Assembly (NCBI GenBank): GCA_016196125.1
Contig: JACPYG010000004.1
Coordinates: 138-64,137, forward strand
DNA: 64,000 bases
Source: Candidatus Staskawiczbacteria bacterium
GTDB taxonomy: Bacteria > Patescibacteriota > Minisyncoccia > Minisyncoccales > Staskawiczbacteraceae
Direction of reading: 5' to 3'
The position numbers were made by a program, and so were the translations under genes. The notes below the pieces were generated by a model. The model was not told the DNA's origin, ran no database searches, and saw nothing but the letters and a program-made list of their open reading frames with translations. How positions within the stretch are numbered: position 1 is the first letter of the stretch; each line of letters starts with the position of its first letter. This document shows, piece by piece, positions 15,521 to 36,692 of the stretch.

Positions 15521-16141
15521 TCACAATATTTTTTTAATTATTTTTTTAATATCTTTAAAAACTTCCGGAATAGCCTTTTCGCCATTAACCATGATAACAT
15601 TTTTGAACATTTCGGGCATTTTTTTATAAAACTCACTCACTTTTACAAGTTTTTCTTTTTTCTCAAAAAGCTCTTTTGGCTCTCCCCTGCCTTCAATTCT
15701 TTCCATGCAGGATTCCGGCAAAACATCAATTATGATAGTCAAATCTGGCAATAGAAATTGTTCATTCATTTTTATTAATAATTGTAAATCCAAACCATCC
15801 GAAGCGCCATAGGCAAAAGTTGAAAAAGCATAGCGGTTAGAAAGCACAAATTTGCCTTTTTTTAAAGCGGGAATAACCTTGTTGTCCAAATGTTCTTTTC
15901 TGTCTTGCACATACAAACTTTGCAATTCTAATGGCGTAAGTTTAATTTCTTCCCTTAATGCCTGCTTAATTTTCCTGCCAGCTTCCGACTCCATTGTCGG
16001 TTCTTTTGTTGCAATAACTTGCTTGCCTCTTAAATAATCCAATAAAAGCTCAATTTGGGCGTTTTTACCGGAACCGTCCAATCCTTCAATAACAATAAAC
16101 CCCCCACCTTTTTGTTTTTTAAAAAGAACTTTGCCGTTCAT
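15521..16141 (-). CDS. tmk: thymidylate kinase
   Basis: FIVIEGLDGSGKNAQ P-loop. ATG at 16141 (MNGKVLFKKQKGGGFIVIEG) is preferred. The track ORF extends to 16210. Confidence 0.85.
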   Translation of the reverse strand: MNGKVLFKKQKGGGFIVIEGLDGSGKNAQIELLLDYLRGKQVIATKEPTMESEAGRKIKQALREEIKLTPLELQSLYVQDRKEHLDNKVIPALKKGKFVLSNRYAFSTFAYGASDGLDLQLLIKMNEQFLLPDLTIIIDVLPESCMERIEGRGEPKELFEKKEKLVKVSEFYKKMPEMFKNVIMVNGEKAIPEVFKDIKKIIKKIL

Positions 16142-16180
16142 GGAATAATACCAATCATTTCTTGAAAAAAGGTGGGGGGT
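16099..16180. repeat. inverted repeat, GTGGGGGG family, spanning the tmk start (arms 16099-16113 and 16166-16180)
   Basis: accccccaccttttt and aaaaaggtggggggt form a 15-bp perfect inverted repeat. The ATG at 16141 sits in the 52-nt loop. Confidence 0.8.
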
Positions 16181-16206
16181 AAATTTGCCCTGGTAATTGC
16201 CTTTAA

Positions 16207-16818
16207 TCATTTTATAAGTTTTGATAAATACTCTTTATAAACAACCTGAACCCAAGCGCCTGGAGTTCCTTTTATATGCCCTTCAATATCTTTTAAGCCA
16301 ACCAATTCCCCTTTCATTTTATCTGTTTCTTTTATAGAAATTTCAGGGCTATTGCCGACGAAGTTATAAACCAAACCCAAATGAACCGACTCAACCGGCC
16401 TTGAGTCGTCATTTAAAATTCCAATTAACTTTTTTTCCAAAAAATTTCCCTTAAAATCCACTTCTTCCGACCATTCTCGCATCATTCCGGCTTCCAAAAT
16501 ATTTTGGCCGCCATTTACATCAACCGGATTTATATGTCCGCCAACTCCTACTTGATAGCTGTCAACCAATCTTTTCTCTCCCGCCGATTCTAAATATTTA
16601 TAAATAAAGTACTTGTCTTTAAAATTAAAAACAATATAAGGTATTATTTGCTGAAAAGACGGGTCTTCTTCAACATTTCCTCTTCTTTTAAATTGATAAT
16701 TATTATTTATTATGTCCAAATAATAATCCAAATTATCTGTTTTTAAGCCTTGCCACCTGCCTTTTTCAAAAATTATATCAGCCGGCACTACCAAAACTAA
16801 TTCATCGTCTTTTGACAT
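16207..16818 (-). CDS. Nudix-fold protein, YmaB-like (putative nucleotide pyrophosphohydrolase)
   Basis: Divergent Nudix box GGQNILEAGMMREWSEEV. The overall layout resembles the YmaB proteins found in ribonucleotide reductase operons. Embedded in the dTTP cluster. Confidence 0.45.
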   Translation of the reverse strand: MSKDDELVLVVPADIIFEKGRWQGLKTDNLDYYLDIINNNYQFKRRGNVEEDPSFQQIIPYIVFNFKDKYFIYKYLESAGEKRLVDSYQVGVGGHINPVDVNGGQNILEAGMMREWSEEVDFKGNFLEKKLIGILNDDSRPVESVHLGLVYNFVGNSPEISIKETDKMKGELVGLKDIEGHIKGTPGAWVQVVYKEYLSKLIK

Positions 16819-16819
16819 A

Positions 16820-17380
16820 TTATTGATTTTTATATTCTTCTACTGAATTATCAACAACAAAAACTTTTACACCGGCCTTTTCAAATAATTCCATAGACTG
16901 CTTGTCTGCATGATATCTTTTTTGGGCCACAACTCTTTTAATGCCAACGCGCACTATTCTCATGGCGCAATTATAACAAGAAACCATTTTGCAGTAGATA
17001 GTGCCACCTTGGAGCTTTATTCCATCTTTTGCCGCCTGTAAAATCGCATTCTCTTCCGCATGCAAAGTTCTCATGCAATGCTGGGATTGATGTCCGTCTT
17101 CATGGGTTACCGTTTTCATTAAATGACCCACATCATCACAATGAGGCTGCCCCGGAGGAGAGCCAACATAACCAGTGGCCAAAATTGTATTATTTTCGCT
17201 GACTATCACAGAACCGCTTCTGCCCCTGTCGCAAGTTGCGCGTTTGCCTATTGGATCCAATAATCCTAAAAAATATTCATCCCATGTCGGACGCGCGTAT
17301 TTTGTTTTTTCTTCCATATTTTTTAAATAATACTCCTTAAATTGTTCAGCCATTCTATCATTATTATTTTTGTAATACAA
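16820..17380 (-). CDS. deoxycytidylate (dCMP) deaminase
   Basis: Zinc motifs HAEENAI and CYNCAM. An alternative start MAEQF lies at 17353. Confidence 0.85.
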   Translation of the reverse strand: MYYKNNNDRMAEQFKEYYLKNMEEKTKYARPTWDEYFLGLLDPIGKRATCDRGRSGSVIVSENNTILATGYVGSPPGQPHCDDVGHLMKTVTHEDGHQSQHCMRTLHAEENAILQAAKDGIKLQGGTIYCKMVSCYNCAMRIVRVGIKRVVAQKRYHADKQSMELFEKAGVKVFVVDNSVEEYKNQ

Positions 17381-17425
17381 ATAAAGTAAAGATTGCCATA
17401 AATTATAATGGTTAGCAAAGAATGA

Positions 17426-18139
17426 TTAATTTTTACATTTATTAAATCTACTTAATTGTTTAATTATATAATCCATTTCTTTTTCTGTTTCATCGGGCGA
17501 TATTACGCTTTCAATTATAATGGGACATAAGGGATTTTGAATAGACTTGATTATAATATTTTGTTTTGTTTTATATAAAGCGTCGTGATGGTCTTCGTAT
17601 CCACTTAAATGTGTTTGAACAATTTTATTACCTAATTTTTCATAAAAATAAGAAGCAAGTCTCATTGTATTATCATTTGTATAAACATGATTAACATCTA
17701 ATATTATTTTAAACTTTTCATCAGACAACACAGAAATAATTTCTTCAGGTATTTTAAAATACTTTTTACGGCAATCCATATTTTCAAAAGCTACTGGAAA
17801 AGGGGTATTTTTAAATACATTAAAATCTTGTACGGTATTCGGATGAAAAATTACAATATCAAGCTCGCGTATTTTATTTAGTTTTTGGATTTTATCAAAT
17901 ATAAATTCTGTATCTTTAGTTCTCCCATACGGGAAAACTGGGGCGTGTAAACTAACATATTCAAAATTTTCAATATCACCTTTTGTGATTTCATCAAGTA
18001 ATCCTTTTTTAATATTTTCAATATTAATAAAATTAAGTTCAACAACTCTATATTCTGATTTTTGTAAAAAGTTAAGAGATTCTTTTACGGTAAAATACTT
18101 ATATAATGCTCCTGTTGAAAACCCTATTTTAAAATTCAT
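17426..18139 (-). CDS. xylose-isomerase-like TIM-barrel protein (sugar phosphate isomerase/epimerase family)
   Basis: MNFKIGFSTGAL, SLHAP, FENMD and ILDVNH strand-end motifs are typical of the AP-endonuclease-2/TIM family. Confidence 0.4.
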   Translation of the reverse strand: MNFKIGFSTGALYKYFTVKESLNFLQKSEYRVVELNFINIENIKKGLLDEITKGDIENFEYVSLHAPVFPYGRTKDTEFIFDKIQKLNKIRELDIVIFHPNTVQDFNVFKNTPFPVAFENMDCRKKYFKIPEEIISVLSDEKFKIILDVNHVYTNDNTMRLASYFYEKLGNKIVQTHLSGYEDHHDALYKTKQNIIIKSIQNPLCPIIIESVISPDETEKEMDYIIKQLSRFNKCKN

Positions 18140-18213
18140 ATATTGGTATTATAGATTATTTTAAATAATTAAAAAACCCCATGAAATTATATTATCAAAG
18201 GGTTATAACCATA

Positions 18214-18561
18214 TTAATTAATATTAATACCAAAGTGTTTTTTTAATTCTTTAGCAAAATTTGATAGCGTTTTTAATTCTTGGGGGTAGTGAAATTCGTG
18301 CGGGAAATTGGCGATATAGCCATCTATAGGATGACCACTTTCAAGCCAATCTCTGATAACTTCATGACAACGAATACTCCTATCTTGCAAGTGATTAATA
18401 AATTCTTCAGATAGAAGATACGGTGGGTCAATATAGTGTTGTATATTTTTTAATACTGTTTTATCATCACCACTAAATATTTTTACAACCATTTTGATCT
18501 TTTTAACATTGGCTACGGCACATGGATTATTTGATGTTGTTTTATATAAACTAACTGCCAC
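18214..18561 (-). CDS. C-terminal half of a split nucleotidyltransferase-like gene (115 aa, GTG start)
   Basis: Same reading frame as 18565..18954, separated only by TAA plus one codon. Confidence 0.35.
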   Translation of the reverse strand: MAVSLYKTTSNNPCAVANVKKIKMVVKIFSGDDKTVLKNIQHYIDPPYLLSEEFINHLQDRSIRCHEVIRDWLESGHPIDGYIANFPHEFHYPQELKTLSNFAKELKKHFGININ

Positions 18562-18564
18562 TTT

Positions 18565-18954
18565 TTAAGTGCTTCCATCTAAAATTATGTTCAAATGATT
18601 GGGATGAATAAGATGGTGGCCATAAAGTACAAGAACATTTTTTGTCCTAATTCTGTCCCTTAATTTATAAACACCATGCATAGTGCCTCTTATAGACGCA
18701 TTAAAATATATTTTTACTCCTTTTTGATTAAATTTATTAATTTGCTCAGAGATTGGCTTTATTAGCTCGCTTCGCTCGATACAAAGAAAAATTCTACCTT
18801 CAATGGCTTCTCTAACTGCTCTTAAAACATATTCTATAGTTGGTATGCCTAAAATTGGAATCAATGATTTGCATCCATATTTTGTGATGAGTTGACCAAA
18901 TCTTGCGCCTCTCCCTCCACTCATGATAATGGCATCAACCTTTTGTCTAGACAT
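18565..18954 (-). CDS. N-terminal half of a nucleotidyltransferase (NTP_transferase-like, 129 aa)
   Basis: AIIMSGGRGARFG matches the GGxGxR nucleotide-binding signature. Too short for a complete enzyme. Confidence 0.5.
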   Translation of the reverse strand: MSRQKVDAIIMSGGRGARFGQLITKYGCKSLIPILGIPTIEYVLRAVREAIEGRIFLCIERSELIKPISEQINKFNQKGVKIYFNASIRGTMHGVYKLRDRIRTKNVLVLYGHHLIHPNHLNIILDGST

Positions 18955-19020
18955 TATAAACTCCTTTGTTTGTTAAAGAACTGGACTGTAATGGACGATA
19001 ATACTTTTATTGTTATTTGT

Positions 19021-19066
19021 CAAAAATAAACACCATTACGGTTACTGTGACGGTGTTTGTTTTTTA
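19021..19066 (-). terminator. possible terminator after rplK
   Basis: In minus sense AAACACC-N17-GGUGUUU is followed by AUUUUUG. The stem is imperfect. Confidence 0.35.
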
Positions 19067-19068
19067 AA

Positions 19069-19494
19069 TTATTCTTTTATTTCTATGCCCATATTTTTTG
19101 CTGTTCCGGCAATTATTTTCATTGCCTGCTCAATATCTTTGGTGTTTAGGTCTTCTATTTTTTTCTGGGCAATTTCTTTTATCTGAGATTTCGTTACTGT
19201 GCCCACTTTCTTTTTATTGGGGGTACCAGAACCTTTTTCAATGCCAGCCGCCTTTTTTAATAATTCTGAAGCCAGGGGTGATTTAAGCCTATAAGTATAG
19301 GTTCTATCAGCATATATGGTTACCGAAGTCGGAACTATAAAACCCGACATTTCTTTTGTCGCATCATTAAATTTCTGGCAGAATTCTCCCATATTTAATC
19401 CGTATTTAGCCAAAGCTGGCCCAATCGGAGGAGCCGGAGTCGCCTTGCCTGCCGGAATTTGTATGTCTACTACTGCTTTTATTTCTTTTGCCAT
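19069..19494 (-). CDS. rplK: ribosomal protein L11
   Basis: MAKEIKAVVDIQIPAGKATPAPPIGPALA. Start taken at 19494 rather than 19554. Confidence 0.95.
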   Translation of the reverse strand: MAKEIKAVVDIQIPAGKATPAPPIGPALAKYGLNMGEFCQKFNDATKEMSGFIVPTSVTIYADRTYTYRLKSPLASELLKKAAGIEKGSGTPNKKKVGTVTKSQIKEIAQKKIEDLNTKDIEQAMKIIAGTAKNMGIEIKE

Positions 19495-19501
19495 AACTTT
19501 T

Positions 19502-20050
19502 TTATAATTTTTTAATTTGCAATGAATCAAGCTCAACCGGCGTATCCCTGCCAAACATATTAATTAATACCTTAATTTTGCCCTTTTCCTGGTCTATTTC
19601 CGAAACTCTCCCTTCAAAACCTTTAAATGGCCCGTCTGTAATTTTAACATTGGCGCCAATCTCAACATCAATTGTAAATTGCGGTTCTGTTCCAACTTCC
19701 ATTCTTTTCATTAAGTCGTCAATATCACGTTTTGAAACTGGGATTGGGGTGGTTTCAGCCCCTAAAAATCCTGTTACCCTTGGAGTATTTCTAACCACAT
19801 ACCACGAAGCGTCGTCTACTATCATTTCCACCAGCACATAACCGGGGTAAATTTTTTCTTCAATTGTTTTTCTTTTTCCGTTTTTAATTTTTATCTTTCT
19901 TTCTTTGGGAACAATAACATTAAAAATTTTATCTTCCATGCCCAAACTATCAATCCTTTGTTTAAGGTTTTTGGCAACCGCATCCTCGTATCCGGAATAA
20001 GTATGTATCACATACCAATTTTTTTCTTGCTCTATTACTTGTTTTGGCAT
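19502..20050 (-). CDS. nusG: transcription antitermination factor NusG
   Basis: KNWYVIHTYSGYEDAVAKNL, C-terminal KOW (VKITDGPFKGFEGRV). Confidence 0.95.
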   Translation of the reverse strand: MPKQVIEQEKNWYVIHTYSGYEDAVAKNLKQRIDSLGMEDKIFNVIVPKERKIKIKNGKRKTIEEKIYPGYVLVEMIVDDASWYVVRNTPRVTGFLGAETTPIPVSKRDIDDLMKRMEVGTEPQFTIDVEIGANVKITDGPFKGFEGRVSEIDQEKGKIKVLINMFGRDTPVELDSLQIKKL

Positions 20051-20064
20051 AAAATTTTTAAATT

Positions 20065-20259
20065 TTACTTAACAATAAATCTTTTTAGAAGTTCTGCAAA
20101 AAAATAATCCAGCCCGCCCAAAAAAGCAGATACAACTATAATGACTGCCACTATGATTATTGTGTATCGCAAAGCCTCTTTACTCGAAAGCCAGCTTACT
20201 CTTTTTAACTCAACATAAACTTCTTTTAAAAAATGTTTAACTTTTTCTATTATATTCAT
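20065..20259 (-). CDS. secE: preprotein translocase subunit SecE
   Basis: 64 aa with a single C-terminal TM helix. Conserved position upstream of nusG. Confidence 0.8.
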   Translation of the reverse strand: MNIIEKVKHFLKEVYVELKRVSWLSSKEALRYTIIIVAVIIVVSAFLGGLDYFFAELLKRFIVK

Positions 20260-20290
20260 GTCTTAATTATATCTGATTTTTTCAGTTTTT

Positions 20291-20314
20291 AAAACGGCCT
20301 TTTCGGCCGCTTTT
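20291..20314. terminator. weak bidirectional hairpin between GIY-YIG and secE
   Basis: cggcc-ttttc-ggccg flanked by aaaa and tttt. Confidence 0.3.
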
Positions 20315-20354
20315 ATATTTACCCTTATATTAGCCGATGCAAATTAACAAGTCA

Positions 20355-20665
20355 ACCCTTCACCCTCCCCTCAATCTGTTTATCAAAGCAACATGAGCAT
20401 TGCCACCTTTCAGTTGCCTTTCTCTTTTTTGAGCAATTTTTCTATCTTTGTAAGATTCATAATAAATTAATTCCAATGGTCTTCTATAAAAAGTGGCTCT
20501 AACATTACCTAAAACATGTTCTTTAAATCTATTTTTTAAATCTTTTGTAAAACCAATATAATGTCTTTTATCCTTTTTACTTTGTAAAACGTAAACATAG
20601 AACATGTTTTAATGGTTGATTATATAAAAATTGTTCAAAAAAATTTATACCTTAGGGTGAAGGGT
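20355..20665. mobile_element. inverted-repeat-flanked GIY-YIG mini-cassette
   Basis: acccttcaccct (20355-20366) and agggtgaagggt (20654-20665) form a perfect 12-bp GC-rich inverted repeat. They bracket only the 81-aa ORF. Confidence 0.5.
20360..20605 (-). CDS. GIY-YIG nuclease family protein (81 aa)
   Basis: MFYVYVLQSKKDKRHYIGFTKDLKNRFKEH carries the GIY...YIG signature. Confidence 0.85.
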   Translation of the reverse strand: MFYVYVLQSKKDKRHYIGFTKDLKNRFKEHVLGNVRATFYRRPLELIYYESYKDRKIAQKRERQLKGGNAHVALINRLRGG

Positions 20666-20671
20666 CAAGAC

Positions 20672-21913
20672 CTATTTAGGCCTGTAAAATCTTCTTGTGT
20701 GTCCTTGAAAATGATGTTTTTCCCTGCTGTCTTGCTGTATAGATTGAATTGGCCGTGGAGCCGGGAGTTCGGGCAATTGTGAAATCTTCAACATAGATTG
20801 TATTAATCTTTCTATTTCCATAATTTTATTTCTCTGTTCTATCATCACAAAAGAAATGGCGCGACCAGCCATGCCGGCCCTGCCTGTGCGCCCTATTCTG
20901 TGCACATAATCGCCAGCTGATTCCGGAAGGTCGTAATTAATAACCAACTCAATGCCCTTTACATCAATGCCGCGGGAAGCGATGTCGGTTGCAACAAGAA
21001 CCCTGTATTTTCCTAACTTAAAACCGTCTAAGGCTTCCCTCCTCTGGGCAAGCGATCTGTTGGAATGTATTTCGGCAGTGGCTATTCCCATATTTCTAAC
21101 GTCCCTGCATATTTTTTTTGCCCCGAATTTAGTGCGACAAAAAACCAAAACACTTCCTTTATATTCTAAAAGCAATTTATCCAAAAGCCTGTTTTTTTGG
21201 TCTTTTTTCACAATAAAAAGCTCGTGTTCAACTTTTTTTGCCGCAGTCCCCTGGCGGTCTATTTCTACTCTCACTGGAAGTTTCATATGGCTGGTGGCAA
21301 TTTTAACAATGTTTTCGGGCATTGTTGCCGAAAACAGCATAGTTTGCCTGTCTTTTGATGTGGCTTGCAATATCTGTTTTATTTGCGCAGCAAAACCCAT
21401 ATCAAACATGCAATCGGCTTCATCTAAAACCAAAACCGTAACATCGTGAAAACTTAATGTTTTTTGCTGTAAGTGGTCAATAATTCTTCCGGGAGTGCCG
21501 ATTATAATATGGGGCTTATTTCTAATAGCCTGCAACTGTTGGCTCATTGAACTTCCGCCAATCAGCACAGCCGTTTTCAAGCCAAAAGGACGCCCTATTT
21601 TTTGCAGCATTTCGTTGCTTTGCAGAGCCAACTCGCGAGTTGGCAAAATGATCAATCCCTTTCCCCTATTTGCCTGTAAAATGCGCTGAATCATTGGAAT
21701 GCCAAGCGCCAAGGTCTTGCCAGTTCCTGTTTGGGCAATGCCTACAATATCTTTTCCTTGTATAGCCACAGGAATTGCTTTTCGCTGAATAGGAGTTGGA
21801 GTTTTAAAATTTAATTGGTCTAAAACAGCAAGCATTTTGGGAGCTATGCCAAGACCGCCAAAACCATGTTCCGGATTATCGCTTAGAGAGTGCTCTGTTT
21901 TCGTATTTATCAT
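20672..21913 (-). CDS. DEAD-box ATP-dependent RNA helicase
   Basis: AQTGTGKT, DEAD (VLDEADCM), SAT, HRIGRTGRAG. Confidence 0.95.
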   Translation of the reverse strand: MINTKTEHSLSDNPEHGFGGLGIAPKMLAVLDQLNFKTPTPIQRKAIPVAIQGKDIVGIAQTGTGKTLALGIPMIQRILQANRGKGLIILPTRELALQSNEMLQKIGRPFGLKTAVLIGGSSMSQQLQAIRNKPHIIIGTPGRIIDHLQQKTLSFHDVTVLVLDEADCMFDMGFAAQIKQILQATSKDRQTMLFSATMPENIVKIATSHMKLPVRVEIDRQGTAAKKVEHELFIVKKDQKNRLLDKLLLEYKGSVLVFCRTKFGAKKICRDVRNMGIATAEIHSNRSLAQRREALDGFKLGKYRVLVATDIASRGIDVKGIELVINYDLPESAGDYVHRIGRTGRAGMAGRAISFVMIEQRNKIMEIERLIQSMLKISQLPELPAPRPIQSIQQDSREKHHFQGHTRRFYRPK

Positions 21914-21991
21914 ATACCTTGATTATACACCCGTTGGCAGTGTTTGTCAAGTTGAATAGGGCGAAAATAAGGATATTTTCTCTTAAATAAT

Positions 21992-22246
21992 TTAGAAGCC
22001 AAGTCTGGAGTTCATTAAACTTTTTGCCAAAGTTTTCTGTATATTTTCCCTCGCCTCATTTAGCGCCTCTTTTAAGGCATCTTGCTGATTTTCTAAACTT
22101 AACTCTGTGTTTAACTTTATATTTTCAACTTCAAAGTTGCCATTCATCGTAACTGCCACTCCCCTTTTTTCAACAGTCAAGCGCTCCTTTTTGAAGTCTT
22201 CTTGAATCTTCTTTAACTTATGTAAATTTCTAAGATTGTCGAACAT
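21992..22246 (-). CDS. ybaB: YbaB/EbfC family nucleoid-associated protein
   Basis: 84 aa. Pattern KKIQEDFKKERLTVEKRGVAVTMNGNFEVENIKL is typical of the family. Confidence 0.7.
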   Translation of the reverse strand: MFDNLRNLHKLKKIQEDFKKERLTVEKRGVAVTMNGNFEVENIKLNTELSLENQQDALKEALNEARENIQKTLAKSLMNSRLGF

Positions 22247-22249
22247 AAT

Positions 22250-22957
22250 TTATTTTTTCTTATTGTTTAATCTATTTATTTCTTCTTGAATTTCTTTTAT
22301 AACTTCCTTATTACCAATTTCTCCATCTAAGCTAAAGATTATAAATACTTTTCCTTTATATTTTTTCTCAAAATCAATAAAATTTTTCTTCATCCTTTCT
22401 GATATAGAATAATTACCGAAATTTGCTTTAGCTGTAATTGGTTTAATTTGTATACCAAAAGCATACTTACCGACAAATCCTAAGTAATCTATATCGCCAG
22501 CATGGTCTAAATCGGTTTCACTTTCAACAAAATTTACGTCTGGAAAATATTTTGACAATTCATCATTTACTACTGATTTTTCACGAATAAAACCATCGTA
22601 AGTACGATTTATTGTTAAATTATAAATATAATCTATACAGTCCTGTAGTGATAATTCGCTAAATGCTGATTGCCATTCGGGAATCACAACTTCTGTAATT
22701 TTTTCATGCAAACGTTCGCCCAATTCTTTCAAAACGTCTGTGGTTATTTTTACTGGTTCTTTATTTTCAGTATAAGCCTTTTCGAAGTACCATTTTTCCC
22801 ATTCATCTATTATTTTAGGTTGACATTCTCTTATAAGCGCCATAACCGCGCCAACTTTATTTGGTCGCGATAATTGGTAAGTCTGGCAGGCATAATTTAA
22901 AACTTTTTCTTTTTTACCAAATTCCATAGAAAACTTTTTAGAAGTTTTATTTGACAT
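22250..22957 (-). CDS. putative type II restriction endonuclease (PD-(D/E)xK-like)
   Basis: Overlaps the methyltransferase by 11 nt. Candidate catalytic DHAGDIDYLG...FGIQIKP. Possibly MjaI-like, which I cannot verify. Confidence 0.5.
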   Translation of the reverse strand: MSNKTSKKFSMEFGKKEKVLNYACQTYQLSRPNKVGAVMALIRECQPKIIDEWEKWYFEKAYTENKEPVKITTDVLKELGERLHEKITEVVIPEWQSAFSELSLQDCIDYIYNLTINRTYDGFIREKSVVNDELSKYFPDVNFVESETDLDHAGDIDYLGFVGKYAFGIQIKPITAKANFGNYSISERMKKNFIDFEKKYKGKVFIIFSLDGEIGNKEVIKEIQEEINRLNNKKK

Positions 22958-28600: not shown

Positions 28601-28640
28601 TTCTTAATTATTACACGAATTAGAGAAGCAGAACAAGAAT

Positions 28641-28676: not shown

Positions 28677-28684
28677 GTTGTTTT

Positions 28685-28813
28685 TCAGCTTTTTTTCACC
28701 TCTTGCATGATGTTCACGGTCAGGTTGAAAAAGTCAGCAACCCAGATTTCTTCTTCTGGGTAACCCACGCTCAACAACCTTTCCGAGAACTGACGAACAA
28801 GGTAGCCGAACAT
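28685..28813 (-). CDS. small GC-rich ORF (42 aa), below the track threshold
   Basis: My translation: MFGYLVRQFSERLLSVGYPEEEIWVADFFNLTVNIMQEVKKS. An AGGGG sits 8 nt upstream. Locally far more GC-rich than its flanks. Confidence 0.3.
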   Translation of the reverse strand: MFGYLVRQFSERLLSVGYPEEEIWVADFFNLTVNIMQEVKKS

Positions 28814-28886
28814 GAATAGCCCCTAATTATTGTTAAAATTTATTAAAAAGGTATAATAAACAAAAAATTATAAATAGACAATCCAT

Positions 28887-29855: not shown

Positions 29856-30236
29856 TTATTTTATGCTTAACTTTTCTTTTACAAGAGAAACAATCTGGTT
29901 AATATTAACATCAGATTTAACGATATAATCTGTTCCGCTTACGGCTTCAATGGCTTGGCTAATATGTTCCGGGTCATCAAAACCAGTTAAAAACACCATT
30001 TTGGAATTAATGCCTTTTTCTTTTATTTTTTTAGCCATTTCTATGCCATTCATTTGCGGCAACTTGATATCTATAAGTATCAAGTCTGGCTTCTCTTTCC
30101 CCGCTAAAACTAAGCCATCTTCTGCATTTAAAGCATGGATTGTGGAAAATCCATTTGAATTAAAGCCTTGTTCAAGAATCCACAAAAAATTTTTATCATC
30201 TTCCACCAATAAAATTTTTTTGTTTATTTTATCCAT
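29856..30236 (-). CDS. single-domain response regulator (CheY-like receiver)
   Basis: KILLVEDD, DLILIDIKLPQMNG, conserved K (IVKS). Confidence 0.85.
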   Translation of the reverse strand: MDKINKKILLVEDDKNFLWILEQGFNSNGFSTIHALNAEDGLVLAGKEKPDLILIDIKLPQMNGIEMAKKIKEKGINSKMVFLTGFDDPEHISQAIEAVSGTDYIVKSDVNINQIVSLVKEKLSIK

Positions 30237-30245
30237 ATATTTTTT

Positions 30246-30272
30246 CCGCCTTCGCCGGTTGGCGAATGGCGG
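30246..30272. repeat. GC-rich hairpin between the two receiver genes
   Basis: ccgccttcgcc-ggtt-ggcgaatggcgg. It shares the 11-mer ccgccttcgcc with the reverse complement of the thrS GC patch at 7665-7692. Confidence 0.6.
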
Positions 30273-30313
30273 ATTTTAATTTAAGATAAATACTCTTTTA
30301 GGAGTATTTATTT

Positions 30314-30706
30314 TTAAGATAAATACTCTTTTATAAGTTCCAATAACTGCGTTGGGCTTATGTTTGCCTTAATAATGAATTTATCCGGCTTTGCATTACC
30401 TAATTGTTGCATTTGCACATCTTGCTGATTTGTTAAAATAAAAACCTTAATATCTTTGGTTTTTTCATTTTCTTTTATTTGTTTGAAAATCTCTATTCCG
30501 CTGATGTCCGGCAGTATTAAATCTAAAAGCACAATATCTGGCTTTGATTCCGTGTCATCTTCTATATTTTTTATCATGCTCATAACTTCTTGGCCCGAAC
30601 CAAAAACTTTAACATCAAAATTGGCTTTTTTCATTAATGTTTCGTAAATATCAACAATCGCAGGATCGTCCTCCACAAGAATTATTTTTTTTACTTTATT
30701 TGCCAT
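30314..30706 (-). CDS. single-domain response regulator (CheY-like receiver)
   Basis: KIILVEDD, DIVLLDLILPDISG, IIKA. Confidence 0.85.
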   Translation of the reverse strand: MANKVKKIILVEDDPAIVDIYETLMKKANFDVKVFGSGQEVMSMIKNIEDDTESKPDIVLLDLILPDISGIEIFKQIKENEKTKDIKVFILTNQQDVQMQQLGNAKPDKFIIKANISPTQLLELIKEYLS

Positions 30707-30744
30707 ATGGTTTTAGGATACCTTTATTCTAACCCATTTCAATC

Positions 30745-31065
30745 TTACTTGAAAGGATCTGTATAATTTTTATCCAAAGATAATAAATTTTTAAAAATAT
30801 TCTCTCTGTTTTGCCACTCTTCTGCAACCGACCTGTATATGTTTTCTTGAAATTTACTATAAACAGAAGAAATTTCCGGTTCCTGCGCGTCTATTAGCAA
30901 TACATACTTATAAAACAGGAGTCCGCCAATTAATATATCTATTAAAATAAAAACTAAAATGCACAAAAACGCATTTTTTCCCAAAATCCATGGAATCTTT
31001 TTTATATATAAACCTGACGATTCTTTAAAATTATAAAAATGTTTTTTAAAAAATTTTTTCATCAA
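30745..31065 (-). CDS. small membrane protein, unknown function
   Basis: One TM helix (AFLCILVFILIDILIGGLLF). Abuts the pilO stop. Confidence 0.5.
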   Translation of the reverse strand: MMKKFFKKHFYNFKESSGLYIKKIPWILGKNAFLCILVFILIDILIGGLLFYKYVLLIDAQEPEISSVYSKFQENIYRSVAEEWQNRENIFKNLLSLDKNYTDPFK

Positions 31066-31548
31066 TTATTTGGTAACAGCTTCTACTAAAAAATTAAAAT
31101 CAACTGTCGGCTCTTGCGGCGACTTTTTAATTGTTAAGTCCTTTATTCTCATCAAATACGGACTTGCGTCCAATTTTTCAGAAAATTTCAATATATTTAA
31201 AAACTGTCCGGTGCCGTAGATGCTGGATATGGCAACCGGCAAGTTGTTAAAACCTTCTTTCGATAAAGAAATATCCAATTTGACATCTGTGCCAATCCCC
31301 GAATCATTGGCGGTCTTTTCTAAAAATTCAATGAAGTTGACCGGATCTTTAGAATCAACAAATAATTGATCAACTTTTTCTAAATTATAACTATAATTAT
31401 TGTATTTTTTTTTGAAATTATTCAATTCCATATTTTGCTCATTAAGGGAAATTACCTTGCTCTTGCTCAAAAAGATTTCTTTGGAAATATTTTTAACATC
31501 TCTTAGAGCCGGATATATCAAAAACACAATTATAAACAAAGATATCAA
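31066..31548 (-). CDS. pilO: type IV pilus assembly protein PilO-like
   Basis: N-terminal TM helix, coiled region and C-terminal ferredoxin-like part, positioned after pilN. Confidence 0.6.
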   Translation of the reverse strand: MISLFIIVFLIYPALRDVKNISKEIFLSKSKVISLNEQNMELNNFKKKYNNYSYNLEKVDQLFVDSKDPVNFIEFLEKTANDSGIGTDVKLDISLSKEGFNNLPVAISSIYGTGQFLNILKFSEKLDASPYLMRIKDLTIKKSPQEPTVDFNFLVEAVTK

Positions 31549-31581
31549 TGAAAAATGGCAATTATTATGTAAATTTTTGTT

Positions 31582-32139
31582 TTATTTTTCGTCATATAAA
31601 AATTCGAATGTTACATAAAAATTTATGTCTGCTGATTTTATCCAGCTATTGGGCGGAAAATAAACATCTTTTATTTTATTATTGCTTTCAATATTATCTT
31701 TAAAGATTAATAAATTATCCCTTGTGTCGCTTTGACCAGAAATATTGACTTTTATTTTATTATCTTTTTCATCAACATTTATGGAAACATCATTAAAAAA
31801 CAATCCATCCGGCCTTTGAATATCTAAAATAGTTTTTATCACATTGCTAAAATATACTTCTTTTTTGTAAAAAGTGTCAGCTTTGATTAACCCCTCGTTA
31901 TATTTTTTAACAATACTGCCATAGGATAAAAAGTCAGAAGTTTCATATTTTGCTTCGACGCTACCTAAAACACTTTTTTGATAGCTCATCTGCCCTAAAA
32001 TATAAAACTTTAATGAAAATAAAACCAAGGCCAAATAAACCAAAGGAATTATTATTATGTATCCTAAAATTATAGTCAGCTTTTTATTTCTTTCCAATGA
32101 CAATTTTTCTTTTTCTTTTGGCGGTAAAAGATTAATCAT
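31582..32139 (-). CDS. pilN: type IV pilus assembly protein PilN
   Basis: MINLLPPKEKEK N-terminus followed by a TM helix. Confidence 0.7.
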   Translation of the reverse strand: MINLLPPKEKEKLSLERNKKLTIILGYIIIIPLVYLALVLFSLKFYILGQMSYQKSVLGSVEAKYETSDFLSYGSIVKKYNEGLIKADTFYKKEVYFSNVIKTILDIQRPDGLFFNDVSINVDEKDNKIKVNISGQSDTRDNLLIFKDNIESNNKIKDVYFPPNSWIKSADINFYVTFEFLYDEK

Positions 32140-32140
32140 A

Positions 32141-33223
32141 TTAATTATCTATTTGCTCGCTAGCCCCGCGCAATGCCAATCCCAAAGCGGCGGTAAACGA
32201 AAGTATATTTTCGGGCGGAAAAAATTTCTTTTTCGGCTGGATAATATTGGAAAACGGATTTCCAAGTTCTACTTTAATTTTTAATTCTTCGGAAAGAAAA
32301 TCTGATATATTTTTTAAATTTGCCCCGCCGCCCGATAAAATAATTTTTTCTATTTTGCCGTCGTATGGAAAATATTCATGATTTGAATGTCCATGATAAA
32401 AATCTATATATTTTTTAATTTGGCTTGCCAAGTCAAGTAAAATCGGCTCTATGATTTTATCAATACTATGATGTTTTTTATCCAAACCATGTTTGACTTT
32501 TAATATTTCGGCATCATGCAAATTAATGCCTAAACTGTCAGAAATAGCATTTGTCAGCTGTTGGGAAGAAATGGGAATTGAACATGTAAAACGTATGGAG
32601 CCGTCGGAAAAAATAATAAAACCGGTGCTGTCGTACCCTAAATCAATAAGAATTACGGAAGAAGCAGTTTTTTCGTTTTTCAACAAAGCTCTGGCAATGG
32701 CCTGTGATTCTACTTCTAAAACGCAAGGTATGAGACCCGCATTCTTAAAAGACAAAACATAAGAATCAATTATGGATTTTGGCATTACGTTAACTAATAA
32801 ACCCAAGTGCTTTGAATCTTTTTTATGGGCGTCGATAATTTGAAAATCTAAGTATGACTTGTCGATAGCCAGAGGTATGTAGTTTTCCGCCTCAAAAGGC
32901 AAAGCTAATCTTAATTCTTCTTCCGTCATTTTTGGCATCTGGATTAATTGTGAAAAAGATTTTTCTTCCGGCAAAGAAACAATGACATATTTTGTGCCCA
33001 ATTTTTTGCCTTTGACCGTATTACAAGCCATTTTTATAATATTTGCCAAAGATTCTTTATCCTGTATTACCCCCTCTTTTATAACGCCCGGTTTTATCTT
33101 TGCCTCATTAAAAGAAACCAAACTAAAACCTTTTCGCTTTTTTATAAGTTTTATAATTTTTAAAGATGAATCATTGATATCAACTCCGAATATTTCCGGT
33201 TCTAAGTTTAAAAATTTTAGCAT
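32141..33223 (-). CDS. pilM: type IV pilus assembly ATPase-fold protein PilM
   Basis: FGVDINDSSLKIIKL, actin-like fold length (360 aa), C-terminal SGGGANL. Confidence 0.8.
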   Translation of the reverse strand: MLKFLNLEPEIFGVDINDSSLKIIKLIKKRKGFSLVSFNEAKIKPGVIKEGVIQDKESLANIIKMACNTVKGKKLGTKYVIVSLPEEKSFSQLIQMPKMTEEELRLALPFEAENYIPLAIDKSYLDFQIIDAHKKDSKHLGLLVNVMPKSIIDSYVLSFKNAGLIPCVLEVESQAIARALLKNEKTASSVILIDLGYDSTGFIIFSDGSIRFTCSIPISSQQLTNAISDSLGINLHDAEILKVKHGLDKKHHSIDKIIEPILLDLASQIKKYIDFYHGHSNHEYFPYDGKIEKIILSGGGANLKNISDFLSEELKIKVELGNPFSNIIQPKKKFFPPENILSFTAALGLALRGASEQIDN

Positions 33224-33260
33224 TTTGTAATTATAACATTTTTAACAATAAATAATGCTA

Positions 33261-34508
33261 TTATTGTTCTCCCCAGCTTACCACTTTCCATCCGCCAGAC
33301 GGTCCGCTGGAAAAAAATGCGCTTGCCAATCCGCTTTCATAAGTAATTACTGCATTATTGTTCATTATTAATTTATATCCGGTCACCTCACGGGCGGCAA
33401 AAATATTGGAAACTGTAACACCTCCGGCGCTTGTGTAAAAAATTGCTCCAGTTGCGCTATTGCTTACAGTAATGGCAGAATTTGAAGCGTTGGTCGAAAG
33501 AACTAAAAGATAGCTTCCCGCCTGTCCAGACCCTTGCAAAGCGGAGGAATTGCTGGGAGTGATGGTCCCATCAGACAATATGACTCCGCTCAACGAACCA
33601 TAACCGCTGGCAAGTTTTATTTTGGCGCTGTTGCTTACGGTAATATTGCCTGTTACATAAACGGTTCCGGTCAAAGTGAGAATGGCGCTGTTGCTGACAG
33701 ATAAGTTTCCATTAATTTTTTTTGGGCCTAATGACATCGTTTGGGTACCAGAAAGGGTAACACTGCCGATGATTCCTCCGTCTTCTGCATCGTTTTTCCA
33801 GCCATCAATCTGGCTTTGGGAAATAGGCAAAGGTTGCGACGGTATCTCGGCGGATTGGATAGAAGTTGTGCCGCCAACCGTACAGGTATTAGTACCGCCT
33901 GTAACATAAGTTAAATTTCCGTCAATTGTGGAATTTATGCAGCTATATACAAGGGCATTTCCTTTTACATGCATACCGATAATGCTATGGCCATTGCCAG
34001 AAATTATGACATCATTGTCGATTGTTGCGCTGTTTGAGCCTGTAATATTTCCATTAGAAAAAACATTGCCTATTATTCTGCTGCTATTTGACATTTGCAG
34101 CCCTCCCTGCCCTACTTGGGCTCCGTAGAAAAAAGAAACTCCTTGGCCGTCTATGGCATAAACAACCTGTGTTGTTTTAACGACACCGGTATTATTTCCC
34201 TGCGAGCTGATAGACCTTGAACCGCCGATAGTCGCAGGTATGACCACATTGGCTGTAGAATTGTTGATATTTAAATTGTAAGAAATCGGTGACATTTGAG
34301 GATTATTGTTCAAGCGCAATAATGAATCCTCTATTCCCGATTCGGCGGTATAATAAGCCTGAGTTGATTTCACGGCATTAGCGGCGATTTTTTGCCTGTA
34401 AAAAATCAACGAACTCATAGAAATCGCAATGCTTAACATTATTAATAAAATAAAAAATACAATTAAGGTAACAATAAATCCTTTTTGCTTGTTATTTAAG
34501 TTCTTCAT
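33261..34508 (-). CDS. large PilX-like pilin-like protein with beta-helix-like Gly/Ser/Asn repeats
   Basis: N-terminus KQKGFIVTLIVFFILLIMLSIAI (pilin-like helix, no Glu5), then AQAYYTAESG (PilX_N-like). Confidence 0.6.
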   Translation of the reverse strand: MKNLNNKQKGFIVTLIVFFILLIMLSIAISMSSLIFYRQKIAANAVKSTQAYYTAESGIEDSLLRLNNNPQMSPISYNLNINNSTANVVIPATIGGSRSISSQGNNTGVVKTTQVVYAIDGQGVSFFYGAQVGQGGLQMSNSSRIIGNVFSNGNITGSNSATIDNDVIISGNGHSIIGMHVKGNALVYSCINSTIDGNLTYVTGGTNTCTVGGTTSIQSAEIPSQPLPISQSQIDGWKNDAEDGGIIGSVTLSGTQTMSLGPKKINGNLSVSNSAILTLTGTVYVTGNITVSNSAKIKLASGYGSLSGVILSDGTITPSNSSALQGSGQAGSYLLVLSTNASNSAITVSNSATGAIFYTSAGGVTVSNIFAAREVTGYKLIMNNNAVITYESGLASAFFSSGPSGGWKVVSWGEQ

Positions 34509-34517
34509 ATAATTTTT

Positions 34518-34590
34518 ACCCCGTTAGAAGTCTTATTATATTTTCAACACGATAAATTTTTTCTTATTTTATACAGACTTCTAACGGGGT
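34518..34590. repeat. inverted repeat, CCCCGTTAGA family, copy d (arms 34518-34533 and 34575-34590)
   Basis: accccgttagaagtct and agacttctaacggggt form a 16-bp perfect inverted repeat with a 41-nt spacer. It fills the gap between the pilin stop (34590) and the PilX-like start (34508). Confidence 0.85.
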
Positions 34591-35117
34591 TAATAACTTC
34601 TTAAAGAAGCCGTTGAAGTTAAAGTTGTTGATGTATTTGAATGATTTACCGTCAAACTTATTTTAATAGAAGCCGTATCGCCATTTAAAATCTGTGAAAA
34701 TTGCAAATCAGCAACCTGCACTCCGTCTGAAGTTAAAGATACGGGACTTTGAGATTCTTTTTTTAAGCATATAGCCGAACCGCAAAGAAAAAAATCAATA
34801 AAAGTGTTATTTTCACCGTCTGGCAAATACCTCAATGTTTCCAATGAAAGCTGGTTTAACGTGGTCGTAGGGCTATAAACGCTTTTGGCGCCTCTTATTT
34901 CGTAAGTTATTATTTCCAAAGCTCTTCTTGCGTTTTCTCCGGATTCTCTGGCGGCCTTTGTCTTAGAATTAGAATTATTCATCCAAAACAAAGAAGAAAT
35001 AACAGCTAATGAAATAATAGAAAATACTGCAACAAAAACAACAACTTCCACAAGAGTGAGCCCCCCACTCTCTTTTATGTTATTTTGAATTTTTTTTTCG
35101 GAGATATAATAACCCAT
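34590..35117 (-). CDS. type IV pilin / pseudopilin
   Basis: Prepilin signature KESGG-LTLVEVVVFVAV. Confidence 0.8.
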   Translation of the reverse strand: MGYYISEKKIQNNIKESGGLTLVEVVVFVAVFSIISLAVISSLFWMNNSNSKTKAARESGENARRALEIITYEIRGAKSVYSPTTTLNQLSLETLRYLPDGENNTFIDFFLCGSAICLKKESQSPVSLTSDGVQVADLQFSQILNGDTASIKISLTVNHSNTSTTLTSTASLRSY

Positions 35118-35143
35118 GTTTATAATGTTTAGAAAGTGGGGGG
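35061..35143. repeat. inverted repeat, GTGGGGGG family, spanning the pilin start (arms 35061-35073 and 35131-35143)
   Basis: ccccccactctct pairs with agaaagtgggggg at 12 of 13 positions. The ATG at 35117 sits in the 57-nt loop. The downstream arm encodes the SGG-L cleavage motif. Confidence 0.7.
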
Positions 35144-35156
35144 TAAACCCCGCTTT

Positions 35157-35708
35157 TTATTCATGCCAATTAGTAAGATACATAATTACTTTAGATGTTT
35201 TATTTGGCCATGCAACGGTCACGGTAACTTTTATGGTATCTGGGTCATTATGTGATTGGTTGTAATTATCTTCTATATTATTTGTTGCAGGGTCTCTTGA
35301 AACATTATCAAAAACAATTTGTCTCGTAAAAATACCTGTTGTTTCTGTTCCTTGGGCTAAATTCCATTTATTAGGATTTGAACTTGTATCCAAAAAAATA
35401 TGATACGGATTATTGATTCCTTTATTGACCGTGCCCAAACCGTTTACAAACCAATCCGTGCCGTCGCGAAAACTTCTTAGTGATTCAATTTCTTCTTTTA
35501 TTAAAGAATCTGCCTGGTTTGTATTTGTTATTAAAGAAGAAATATTCAACGACATAGTTCCTATGGACACAATGGTAATAAAAACAATGCTGATAATTGC
35601 AATTGATATTAAAATATCCAAAAGAACAAACCCCCTTTTTTTATGGAATATGGAATATAGAAAATAGAAAATAGAATAACAACTGTGATTTTTTGTTATG
35701 TGTTTCAT
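35157..35708 (-). CDS. pseudopilin with an unusually long 25-aa leader
   Basis: KKRG-FVLLDILISIAIISIVFI. The leader is encoded by low-complexity ttctattttctattttctat sequence. Confidence 0.65.
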   Translation of the reverse strand: MKHITKNHSCYSIFYFLYSIFHKKRGFVLLDILISIAIISIVFITIVSIGTMSLNISSLITNTNQADSLIKEEIESLRSFRDGTDWFVNGLGTVNKGINNPYHIFLDTSSNPNKWNLAQGTETTGIFTRQIVFDNVSRDPATNNIEDNYNQSHNDPDTIKVTVTVAWPNKTSKVIMYLTNWHE

Positions 35709-35726
35709 GTTATGTGTTATGTGATA

Positions 35727-36647
35727 TTATTGCCAGACAAAATTTGAAACATAAATAGACGAATTAGCAGTTGTCAGTCCGTCTGCTGAATATTGCGCAA
35801 GATACCCGGAACTGTCTGCAGAAATTGTAATTGTGAGGCTTTTGTCGTTAAATCTCCTGTCTCTGTGAATGCTAAATTGCGTGTCCGGGTTGTTTAATCT
35901 ATTGGTGTGAATTCTTATTGTTTGATTTGCGCCTCCAACATTGATGATTCCCGACCAATCAATCTGTCCCGCAAATAAACTTTGGCTTATTGGAATTGAT
36001 TGTATTGCCTGGCCGCTATTAAAATTCAATACTATATTTTCATTATTAACATCAATTAATCTGCTGTAATCAAATTGCAAGTGCCTTGAATCTTTGACTC
36101 TGTCATCGTCTGACAAAGCCGCAGGAACGTTAAAACTGATTGTGCCGGCATTTGATATATAGGCAGTTTTGATTTGGCTTGTATCTGACTTTAATCTTAA
36201 AGAAACACTGCCTGCCGCTTGGGTCGCGCCGGTCAGCTTATCAAAAACTATTTCATTTGGACCGCCCAGGTCAATCGCAAAAAACTCCACTTTTTCAGAT
36301 AAAAAATAAGTTTGGTCTGCCAAAATATCTCGCAAAGCATAATCAGACCCTTTAAATAATATGTATTTATTAGGTGAAACTGATTGGTCTAAATAAACTC
36401 CGTATTGGCTGTTGTTTTCAGAAGACAAAGTTCTGCTTTGGGCAAGCTTTAAAATATTTGTAAATTCTTGAATTCCATTGTCTAAATCAGATTTATTTTT
36501 AATGTAATAAAAAGAAACGATTGGCGCTGCAATCAAAACAGTTAAAATCAAAATAACAACAATTACTTCAATAAGGGTAAACCCCCCACCACTTTCACTT
36601 GATAATCGAAATTTGTTTTTTTGTTTATTTTCAATTTTAAAAATCAT
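35727..36647 (-). CDS. type IV pilin (major-pilin-sized, 306 aa from ATG 36647)
   Basis: MIFKIENKQKNKFRLSSESGGG-FTLIEVIVVILILTVL. The track ORF extends to 36722. Confidence 0.8.
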   Translation of the reverse strand: MIFKIENKQKNKFRLSSESGGGFTLIEVIVVILILTVLIAAPIVSFYYIKNKSDLDNGIQEFTNILKLAQSRTLSSENNSQYGVYLDQSVSPNKYILFKGSDYALRDILADQTYFLSEKVEFFAIDLGGPNEIVFDKLTGATQAAGSVSLRLKSDTSQIKTAYISNAGTISFNVPAALSDDDRVKDSRHLQFDYSRLIDVNNENIVLNFNSGQAIQSIPISQSLFAGQIDWSGIINVGGANQTIRIHTNRLNNPDTQFSIHRDRRFNDKSLTITISADSSGYLAQYSADGLTTANSSIYVSNFVWQ

Positions 36648-36692
36648 AAATAATTTAACAATTATAGCGTGAAAGTGGTGGGGGGTAAACCC
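36575..36692. repeat. inverted repeat, GTGGGGGG family, spanning the pilin start (arms 36575-36598 and 36669-36692)
   Basis: gggtaaaccccccaccactttcac pairs with gtgaaagtggtggggggtaaaccc at 22 of 24 positions (18 contiguous). The 70-nt spacer holds tataat and the ATG at 36647. Confidence 0.85.

Follow-up and report, generated by a model that had tools for sequence, protein, structure and literature searches.

Inverted repeats in the thymidylate kinase gene and in two pilin genes from a Staskawiczbacteria genome as probable ends of small palindromic mobile elements

Introduction

Three genes in a stretch of 64,000 nucleotides from a Candidatus Staskawiczbacteria bacterium (GenBank assembly GCA_016196125.1, contig JACPYG010000004.1, positions 138 to 64,137 of the forward strand; this whole stretch is called the window below) carry close to their annotated starts a pair of C- and G-rich inverted repeats, with an ATG between the arms. 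The genes are tmk, coding for thymidylate kinase, and two pilin genes, here pilin 1 and pilin 2. What are these repeats, and how did they come to lie inside these genes? The original prediction, made from the letters alone, saw the upstream arm as 5' untranslated region paired with the first codons, and offered start-codon sequestration, a slipped-strand phase-variation tract or a recombination site as possible meanings. We propose a different answer: the three repeat pairs are very probably terminal inverted repeats, belonging to a small palindromic mobile element of the non-autonomous kind that was inserted in copies of 80, 83 and 104 nt.

Results

The 8-mer GTGGGGGG/CCCCCCAC occurs six times in the window, exclusively as three close inverted pairs (Table 1). 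Dinucleotide shuffles of the window contained 0.66 occurrences of GTGGGGGG on average and never reached six, so that the pairs described in the original prediction are real. The C6 or G6 run alone is not rare as had been stated, with nine observed against 13 expected; the non-randomness is that of the longer motif and its pairing, not of the run itself. A recount of the paired positions gave the same figures as before: 18 contiguous pairs in pilin 1, for which a repeat finder returned 32-nt arms at 84%, 15 contiguous pairs in tmk (20-nt arms at 90%), and 12 of 13 in pilin 2, read off the sequence directly. Predicted RNA fold energies of the three regions were -51, -32 and -28 kcal/mol (z = -8.4, -4.0 and -4.4), and none of 200 shuffles folded as stably as any of the three repeat regions. 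All three host genes lie on the minus strand, and domain matches supported their identities as a thymidylate kinase and two pilins. An in-frame ATG was seen within the loop of each of these three copies, and the downstream arms do encode SESGGG/FT (pilin 1), ESGG/LT (pilin 2) and KGGG/F (tmk), where the slash, as in the peptides below, marks the junction. Rfam, searched with the window at gathering thresholds and with positions 34480-36760 at E-value thresholds, returned only spurious sub-threshold matches to microRNA hairpins and left the element itself unmatched.

The tmk gene, which adjoins thyA, is annotated by NCBI from the ATG in the loop (16141), giving 206 aa. Its reading frame, however, stays open upstream through both arms to an older ATG, placed so that it overlaps with the stop codon of the gene before it. 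Read from there, Tmk is MIKGNYQGK, then a 28-aa insert (FTPHLFSRNDWYYSMNGKVLFKKQKGGG), then FIVIEGLDGSGK. We compared it with the 120 closest orthologs, the protein of the window included. In 116 of them the junction K9/F10 is uninterrupted, of the type MIKNNYPGK/FIVIEGLDGSGK (M-I-K-x-x-Y-x-G-K/F-I-V-I-E-G); one is truncated at the N-terminus, and the 28-residue insert is found only in the window and in two relatives, 79% and 68% identical. At the DNA level, compared at one empty and two filled sites, the difference is that between TTTA and TTTA-element-TTTA: the ortholog L157 reads GGT AAG TTT ATT GTC with a single TTTA, the window GGC AAA TTTA(CCCCCCAC...80 nt...GTGGGGGG)TTTA TT GTT, an addition of 80 + 4 = 84 nt. 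The suspicion that the glycine run ahead of the P-loop strand was atypical for a thymidylate kinase, and that the element had been imposed on the gene, was thus borne out.

The insert is in frame and free of stops in all three tmk lineages that carry it. In one of them, L005, it has no in-frame ATG or GTG, only one TTG, and yet the frame is open. Two tmk relatives, of 233 and 231 aa, had been annotated by other pipelines with the upstream ATG as start. Within the loop codons, substitutions amounted to 0.37-0.47 at third positions and 0.11-0.32 at first and second positions, the numbers being small, and the insert was less constrained than the rest of Tmk. This fits a translated, loosely constrained linker.

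Pilins 1 and 2 are N-methyl-motif pilins within a pilB-pilC-pilins-pilM cluster. As in tmk, the pilin 1 frame is open through both arms to an ancestral ATG, here 4 nt past the pilC stop. The full protein reads MMNFSSLKNNG, a 36-aa insert (FTPHHF...SSESGGG) and FTLIEV, and the insertion comes to 104 + 4 = 108 nt, that is 36 codons. Most of the 120 closest pilin 1 homologs have leaders of 4-16 residues. Empty sites were found at syntenic loci, AAT AAC GGG TTT ACT TTG in L158 and AGG GGG TTT ACT ATT in L160. NCBI starts the gene at the loop ATG at 36647 (306 aa), and one relative was called from the upstream ATG by another pipeline (331 aa). The TATAAT noted earlier in this loop is present, with TTTACC 17 nt upstream; together they form the best sigma-70-like match of the region, just upstream of the loop ATG. 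With the segment between the duplicated TTTAs taken out, Tmk regains an N-terminus, and pilin 1 a short prepilin leader, of textbook form.

In pilin 2 a target duplication was not seen: the element has TTTA upstream (35144-35147) and CTCA downstream. A remnant of the ancestral start is present at 35162-35164, from which ATG AAT AAA AAG CGG GG (MNKKRG) runs into the 83-nt element. Its frame is 1 nt off and stops after 11 codons inside the element; one additional T would restore it, stop-free. The ortholog L159 has the empty site, ATG AAT AAA AAT GGA TTT ACT TTA (MNKNG/FTLIEVVVF...). Since the old start is out of frame, we infer that the loop ATG must be used in this gene. All three copies lie a few codons into their gene and those in tmk and pilin 1 are flanked by TTTA; the upstream arm therefore lies in former codons 10-15 of the gene, and not in a dedicated 5' untranslated region as had been supposed.

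Conservation of the arms among relatives has two sides. Most orthologs do not have them, but where the tmk and pilin 1 copies were inherited their complementarity was kept. In tmk, ..CCTTTTT/AAAAAGG.. of the window corresponds to ..CCTTTCG/CGAAAGG.. in L156. The pilin 1 orthologs have compensated changes at three positions: CCCCCC/GGGGGG in the window stands against CCCAGC/GCTGGG in L159, with CCCCGC/GCTGGG of L302 as an intermediate with one mismatch, and for CCACTTT/AAAGTGG of the window L302 reads CCATTTT/AAAATGG. Across the dispersed family described below, A, G and T occur in similar shares at position 15, which nevertheless forms a Watson-Crick pair in 87 of 96 copies. This covariation is unlike that of a sequence-specific binding site, and the hairpin itself seems to be what matters, be it as single-stranded DNA, cruciform or RNA.

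The orientation of the interior was also considered. Inverting it in silico created stop codons in tmk and in pilin 1; the present orientation is therefore the one compatible with the reading frame, and these stops argue against a designed switch in tmk, assuming that tmk is essential here. An automated screen of 62 pairs of loci with similar flanks found none with an inverted interior. One case was found by eye: the orthologous group I intron loci L052 (2998-3099) and L092 (11542-11642), on two metagenome contigs, have the same flanks and opposite interiors. The native helix beside the L052 copy is replaced in L092 by a C6ACC...GGTG6 mini-hairpin.

The element is not confined to the window. 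A genome scan detected its ends in many metagenome-assembled genomes of Patescibacteria and Omnitrophota, the tmk relative L005 included; about 12 GC-rich alphaproteobacterial matches belonged to a separate repeat and were excluded. A Tagabacteria pilin, L028, has the same layout, ATG CAA GGG TTTA(element)G TTT ACT CTT TTG GAA, and the out-of-frame copies of pilin 2 and L028 both carry an in-frame loop ATG. A metagenome scan with the 14-nt arms gave at least 120 loci, and the matches listed comprised 96 distinct elements in 92 contexts, falling into two sharp length classes of 80-85 and 98-103 nt. Every element examined folds as a long hairpin, and C or G runs of 7-8 nt were found in 12 of the 92 contexts. 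In a scan of viral contigs for one arm there were only lone, unpaired matches, as expected by chance, and no sign of the element.

An exact 4-bp flanking duplication was present in 12 of 92 contexts (2.3 expected) and a 3-bp duplication in 11 (4.9 expected); none was longer than 4 bp. The flanks are non-random over exactly four positions, reading outward T-(T/A)-A-A, and the commonest flanking 4-mers were TTGA, TAAA, TTAA and TCAA. One apparent duplication, AGCG at the 16S V1 copy L047, was rejected: by comparison with typical 16S we take it to be native sequence on both sides of helix 6, and it is still included in the 12.

Host sites were diverse. Copies lie in 16S rRNA (at V1/V2), 23S rRNA, RNase P RNA, group I introns and an FMN riboswitch (Table 1), those in rRNA and RNase P RNA at helix positions; the three copies of the window are part of mRNAs. 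A long open reading frame (ORF) read through the element in 34 of 121 contexts, and all three frames were used (..FTPHHF..SGGG.., ..LPPTTF..KVVGG.. and ..YPPPLF..KWWGV..). At least eight of these read-through contexts are prepilin G/FT sites. Stop-free frames made up 80% in the elements and 58 +/- 4% in shuffled interiors.

Longer versions with the same 14-nt ends were found at two loci, L042 and L074. Each holds one ORF, which starts right past the left arm and ends right before the right arm, between CCCCCCACCACTTT ends, and codes for a GIY-YIG nuclease of 84-85 aa (PF01541, E = 1e-16 to 4e-18). No transposase-sized copy turned up among the fetched loci, where the longest element, of about 286 nt, codes for the GIY-YIG protein only. 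About 20 of the 96 short copies keep an ATG directly after one arm.

The window, too, contains an ORF-bearing element with terminal inverted repeats and a TTGA direct repeat, and its GIY-YIG protein is 48-52% identical to those of L042 and L074. The homolog L293, from another genomic context, shares the repeats of the window element as well as its TTGA duplication. The homologs L281 and L287 have GTCTTCACCC ends and a TCAA duplication. In L299 (470-1000) the GIY-YIG gene is ringed by mini-hairpins, one reading TTGA-CCCTTCACCCTTAGCTAAGGGTGAAGGG-TTGA, with several TTGACCCTTCACC. Of the seven distinct small GIY-YIG homologs examined from other contexts, six adjoin inverted repeats of the family's kind; four small homologs, that of the window among them, have repeats that bracket the ORF together with a TTGA or TCAA duplication. 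The repeat type follows the clade of the GIY-YIG protein. Close homologs occur in unrelated contexts (T2SSE/RuvB, NYN, class I aminoacyl-tRNA synthetase/CsrA, DEAD helicase/NusG and rpsJ/rplC). The last of these is L301, where a small GIY-YIG gene (601-843) lies between rpsJ and rplC of the conserved S10 operon.

These small proteins, of 79-85 aa, consist of the catalytic domain only, and the nearest solved structure is that of the UPF0213 protein BH0048 (1ZG2). Theirs is a large family: at E <= 0.001 it comprises 4,828 clusters at 50% identity, its members mostly measuring 80-125 aa. In a phylogenomic study of 2006, minimal GIY-YIG domains that stand alone in prokaryotes are placed together with Slx1, a structure-specific nuclease (PMC1564403). 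A GIY-YIG homing endonuclease was considered and rejected: the catalytic domain is present, but there is no added DNA-binding domain and no single homing site or intron.

Several neighbouring features deserve mention. Mini-hairpins of about 25 nt, such as CCCCCCACCAAATTTTGGTGGGGGG, have the same terminal stem and almost no interior (L051 5169-5202, L055 2452-2482, L092 11667-11697). In the Doudnabacteria assembly L002 (6914-7023), C6AC/GTG6 arms surround a complete tRNA-Thr(UGU), and the unit lies inside a partial tRNA-like duplicate. A further inverted-repeat family of the window, the "first" one, CCCCGTTAGA...TCTAACGGGG, has four intergenic copies (3336-3434, 4166-4245, 15387-15518 and 34519-34589). 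One is directly 3' of the tmk stop, and another separates pilin 2 from the gene that follows, a place at which the syntenic L160 has only a 7-nt spacer. With the C-run first and TTNA flanks alike, this is probably a sister family of mobile hairpins. An ORF at 40207-40578 on the minus strand, just upstream of pilB and outside any rRNA gene, codes for a 23S rRNA intervening-sequence protein (PF05635, E = 1e-19) and is surrounded by AT-rich imperfect inverted repeats.

Table 1. Positions of the repeat pairs, host reading frames, family copies and nuclease-bearing elements (plain numbers refer to the window; L numbers denote other loci)
Feature	Position	Strand	Details
Inverted 8-mer pair, tmk	16100/16172		
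Inverted 8-mer pair, pilin 2	35061/35136		
Inverted 8-mer pair, pilin 1	36582/36678		
tmk copy of the palindromic element	16100..16179	-	80 nt; arms ACCCCCCACCTTTTT / AAAAAGGTGGGGGGT
TTTA 4-bp duplication of the tmk copy (gene sense)	16180-16183 + 16096-16099		
Full tmk reading frame	15521-16210	-	ancestral ATG at 16210; PF02223
Pilin 2 copy of the element	35061..35143	-	83 nt; arms ACCCCCCACTTTCT / AGAGAGTGGGGGG
Pilin 2 ORF from the ATG in the element	34590..35117	-	ATG at 35117; MGYYISEKKIQNNIKESGG/LTLVEVV
Pilin 1 copy of the element	36582..36685	-	104 nt; 18-bp perfect arms ACCCCCCACCACTTTCAC / GTGAAAGTGGTGGGGGGT
TTTA 4-bp duplication of the pilin 1 copy	36686-36689 + 36578-36581		
Full pilin 1 reading frame	35727-36722	-	ancestral ATG at 36722
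ORF-bearing window element	20356..20664	-	309 nt; terminal inverted repeats CCCTTCACCCT / AGGGTGAAGGG
TTGA direct repeat of the 309-nt element (gene sense)	20665-20668 + 20352-20355		
GIY-YIG ORF in the 309-nt element	20360-20605	-	81 aa; PF01541, E = 1e-15
Long version with the same 14-nt ends	L042 5648-5933		P3 position of RNase P RNA
Long version with the same 14-nt ends	L074 9742-10023		
Copies in 16S rRNA	L016, L047, L037		Rfam
Copies in 23S rRNA	L065, L122, L119		Rfam
Copy in RNase P RNA	L049		Rfam
Copies in group I introns	L052, L092		Rfam
Copy in FMN riboswitch	L150 2147-2249		103 nt; aptamer still above Rfam gathering threshold

Discussion

The features gathered here are those of a miniature inverted-repeat transposable element (MITE): small size without a transposase ORF, terminal inverted repeats, a target duplication against an empty site in tmk and pilin 1, and dispersed copies with presence/absence polymorphism. 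Three copies lie within the 64 kb of the window alone. A partner of the autonomous kind may be represented by L042 and L074, where identical ends enclose a GIY-YIG ORF, whose product would be a candidate transposase. The hairpin is a property of the element, and any effects on the expression of the host genes would be a by-product.

How might the genes have put up with such an insertion? The insertions in tmk and pilin 1 have lengths divisible by three and contain no stops, and read-through from the old start would add 28 and 36 residues; alternatively, initiation at the loop ATG would bypass the insert in both. Tmk would tolerate it because the N-terminus ahead of strand beta-1 is free, and a pilin because the prepilin leader is cleaved off at G/F anyway. 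The terminal G-run (GGGGGG) together with the duplicated TTTA would even re-create the Gly/Phe prepilin cleavage site. A preference for this target, survivorship or the two together may lie behind the frequent insertions at prepilin G/FT sites. The TTTACC-17-TATAAT that the element brought along may also serve in the expression of pilin 1.

The short copies could be deletion derivatives of elements of about 290-310 nt that carry an Slx1/UPF0213-like GIY-YIG nuclease of about 80-85 aa, and could be mobilised in trans. A nuclease acting on hairpin or cruciform ends would be the likely mobilising enzyme. On the arrangement of genes and repeats, we regard mobilisation of these elements by the GIY-YIG protein as a serious candidate, with doubt somewhat outweighing belief. 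More tentatively still, the C6ACC...GGTG6 hairpins, together with the CCCTTCACCC, GTCTTCACCC and perhaps CCCCGTTAGA relatives, might represent an unrecognised class of prokaryotic transposons. Its sole protein would be the Slx1/UPF0213-like GIY-YIG nuclease of about 80 aa, recognising hairpin or cruciform structure rather than sequence, with a 4-bp duplication at TTNA-like sites. ORF-less derivatives would then persist as structure-neutral "helix extensions" in rRNA, RNase P RNA, riboswitches, introns and the coding sequence of essential genes throughout Patescibacteria and Omnitrophota.

Several observations weigh against this picture of mobile hairpins and their nuclease. A duplication of 3-4 bp accompanies only about a quarter of the copies. 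The GIY-YIG homolog L300, 60% identical to the window protein, has no flanking repeats, and L301 has only a 3' mini-hairpin. The GIY-YIG element of the window (CCCTTCACCCT) does not share the repeat subtype of the three C6 copies, and no C6-type nuclease is visible within the 64-kb window. Finally, the double substitutions that keep the arms of vertically inherited copies complementary imply selection on pairing, and with it a possible role of the hairpin at the level of the host.

This last point leads to the alternative that survives best, an exapted cis-regulatory hairpin: the stem would now control the three genes, by impeding ribosomes that arrive from the upstream gene, by offering RNase III a site at which to uncouple the operon, or by providing a new promoter and start codon. 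The very stable stems (z from -4 to -8.4), the compensatory changes in the tmk and pilin 1 orthologous copies, the promoter-like match before the loop ATG of pilin 1 and the dependence of pilin 2 on its loop ATG are all in line with it. However, copies of the element are also lodged in rRNA, in RNase P RNA, in introns and in the mid-region of unrelated proteins, most orthologs function without it, and the L005 tmk insert keeps its frame open with a single TTG as its one possible in-frame start. The ATGs moreover lie in the unpaired loops of the predicted folds, which is why start-codon sequestration was rejected as well. We consider such an exaptation unlikely. A riboregulator based on pairing of the 5' untranslated region with the coding sequence was rejected, as the upstream arm lies in the ancestral ORF, the arms are missing in most orthologs and Rfam has no match.

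Phase variation, with pilins switched on and off by G6/C6 slippage or by inversion between the arms, appears very improbable. It could draw on homopolymer tracts within coding sequence, on the runs of 7-8 nt in some family copies, on the opposite interiors at the two group I intron loci and on the stops that an inversion would bring in. Tracts of six nucleotides are, however, short for efficient slippage. The same device is found in tmk, a single-copy gene of nucleotide metabolism, no recombinase domain was found in the genes neighbouring the copies, and none of the flank-matched locus pairs of the screen had an inverted interior. A slipped-strand tract or recombination site as the origin or purpose of the repeats does not agree with arms that are missing from most orthologs and with the same ends in unrelated sites.

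Excision and religation at the RNA level, or a ribosomal hop between two TTT codons, either of which would restore the ancestral protein, has the matching TTT codons at both borders and the strong stem between them in its favour, as well as the cutting of rRNA intervening sequences by RNase III in other bacteria and the richness of rRNA of the Candidate Phyla Radiation (CPR) in short uncharacterised insertions (PMC11270868), but deserves hardly any credence: the take-off codon is not followed by a stop, the inserts are open and in frame in three tmk lineages and pilin 1 with an excess of third-position substitutions, which translation predicts and bypass or splicing would not need, the out-of-frame copies in pilin 2 and L028 carry an in-frame loop ATG instead, and no Rfam family matches the element. 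Programmed translational bypass of the T4 gene 60/byp type was likewise rejected; it shares the matching TTT codons, but the take-off stop is missing and the gap is open and in frame.

A palindromic insertion as the origin of the repeats has consequences for annotation, where gene starts of CPR bacteria are called inside elements and "intergenic hairpins" are pieces of coding sequence. Ultra-small, streamlined genomes would tolerate selfish DNA in an essential gene of nucleotide metabolism and in pilin genes, and some of the short insertions in CPR rRNA genes that have lacked an explanation are probably due to the family. Should the minimal GIY-YIG protein indeed mobilise the elements, it would constitute a new catalytic class among prokaryotic transposons, and a very large family of UPF0213-like orphan nucleases would gain a function.

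The window copies are of a MITE-like and Rickettsia palindromic element (RPE)-like kind; the family is new by its ends, its hosts, its target range and its GIY-YIG partner. In the literature on CPR MITE or palindromic elements and on GIY-YIG elements with terminal repeats or target duplication, we found no description of it. RPEs are short palindromes of about 150 bp that lie in frame in unrelated protein genes, as extra peptide segments, and also in non-coding DNA (PMC10969869). In-frame insertion is shared by our family, with read-through in the 34 of 121 contexts that include tmk and pilin 1. This is a comparison of behaviour. The hosts here are Patescibacteria and Omnitrophota, the element is shorter (80-104 nt), and its terminal stem is a GC-rich C6ACC/GGTG6. 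It also shows evidence of target duplication over 4 bp, occurs in rRNA, RNase P RNA, a riboswitch and introns, and has GIY-YIG-bearing relatives.

Bacterial MITEs (Correia/NEMIS, ERIC, BOX, RUP) are small and non-coding, have terminal inverted repeats and target duplications, are dispersed, and give hairpin transcripts with occasional promoters and ORF fusions (PMC10969869). Our family resembles them in its small size, terminal inverted repeats, target duplication and many dispersed copies. It differs in that its arms vary in a compensatory manner rather than being a fixed protein-binding sequence. The insertion sequences to which classical MITEs are known to be related have DDE or HUH transposases, whereas the only protein found between matching ends here is the GIY-YIG nuclease of about 80 aa.

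Organelles harbour GC-rich mobile hairpins as well, namely the GC clusters of yeast mitochondria, the 'byp' elements of Magnusiomyces and the double-hairpin elements of Allomyces. These are GC-rich palindromes in AT-rich compact genomes, found in intergenic DNA, variable rRNA helices, intron peripheries and coding regions. Our family appears to resemble them; the host in our case is bacterial, however, and the frames are open with no evidence of translational bypass.

For CPR bacteria themselves, Tsurumaki et al. (J Bacteriol 2024) described rRNA genes with many short (<200 bp), uncharacterised insertions without ORF, which they regard as probable RNase III intervening sequences, and, at rRNA sites of low conservation, GIY-YIG ORFs within insertions other than introns (PMC11270868). 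Palindromes, hairpins and inverted repeats did not come up in a term search of that paper. The copies of our family in 16S V1/V2, 23S and RNase P RNA resemble these insertions, a likeness by description only. The literature searched on UPF0213 and Slx1-like stand-alone GIY-YIG proteins ascribes no mobility to them. The GIY-YIG ORF of the window and the other element-borne ORFs match the same domain, PF01541; in contrast to UPF0213 proteins as described, they have inverted repeats and 4-bp duplications on both sides and lie in different contexts in related genomes.

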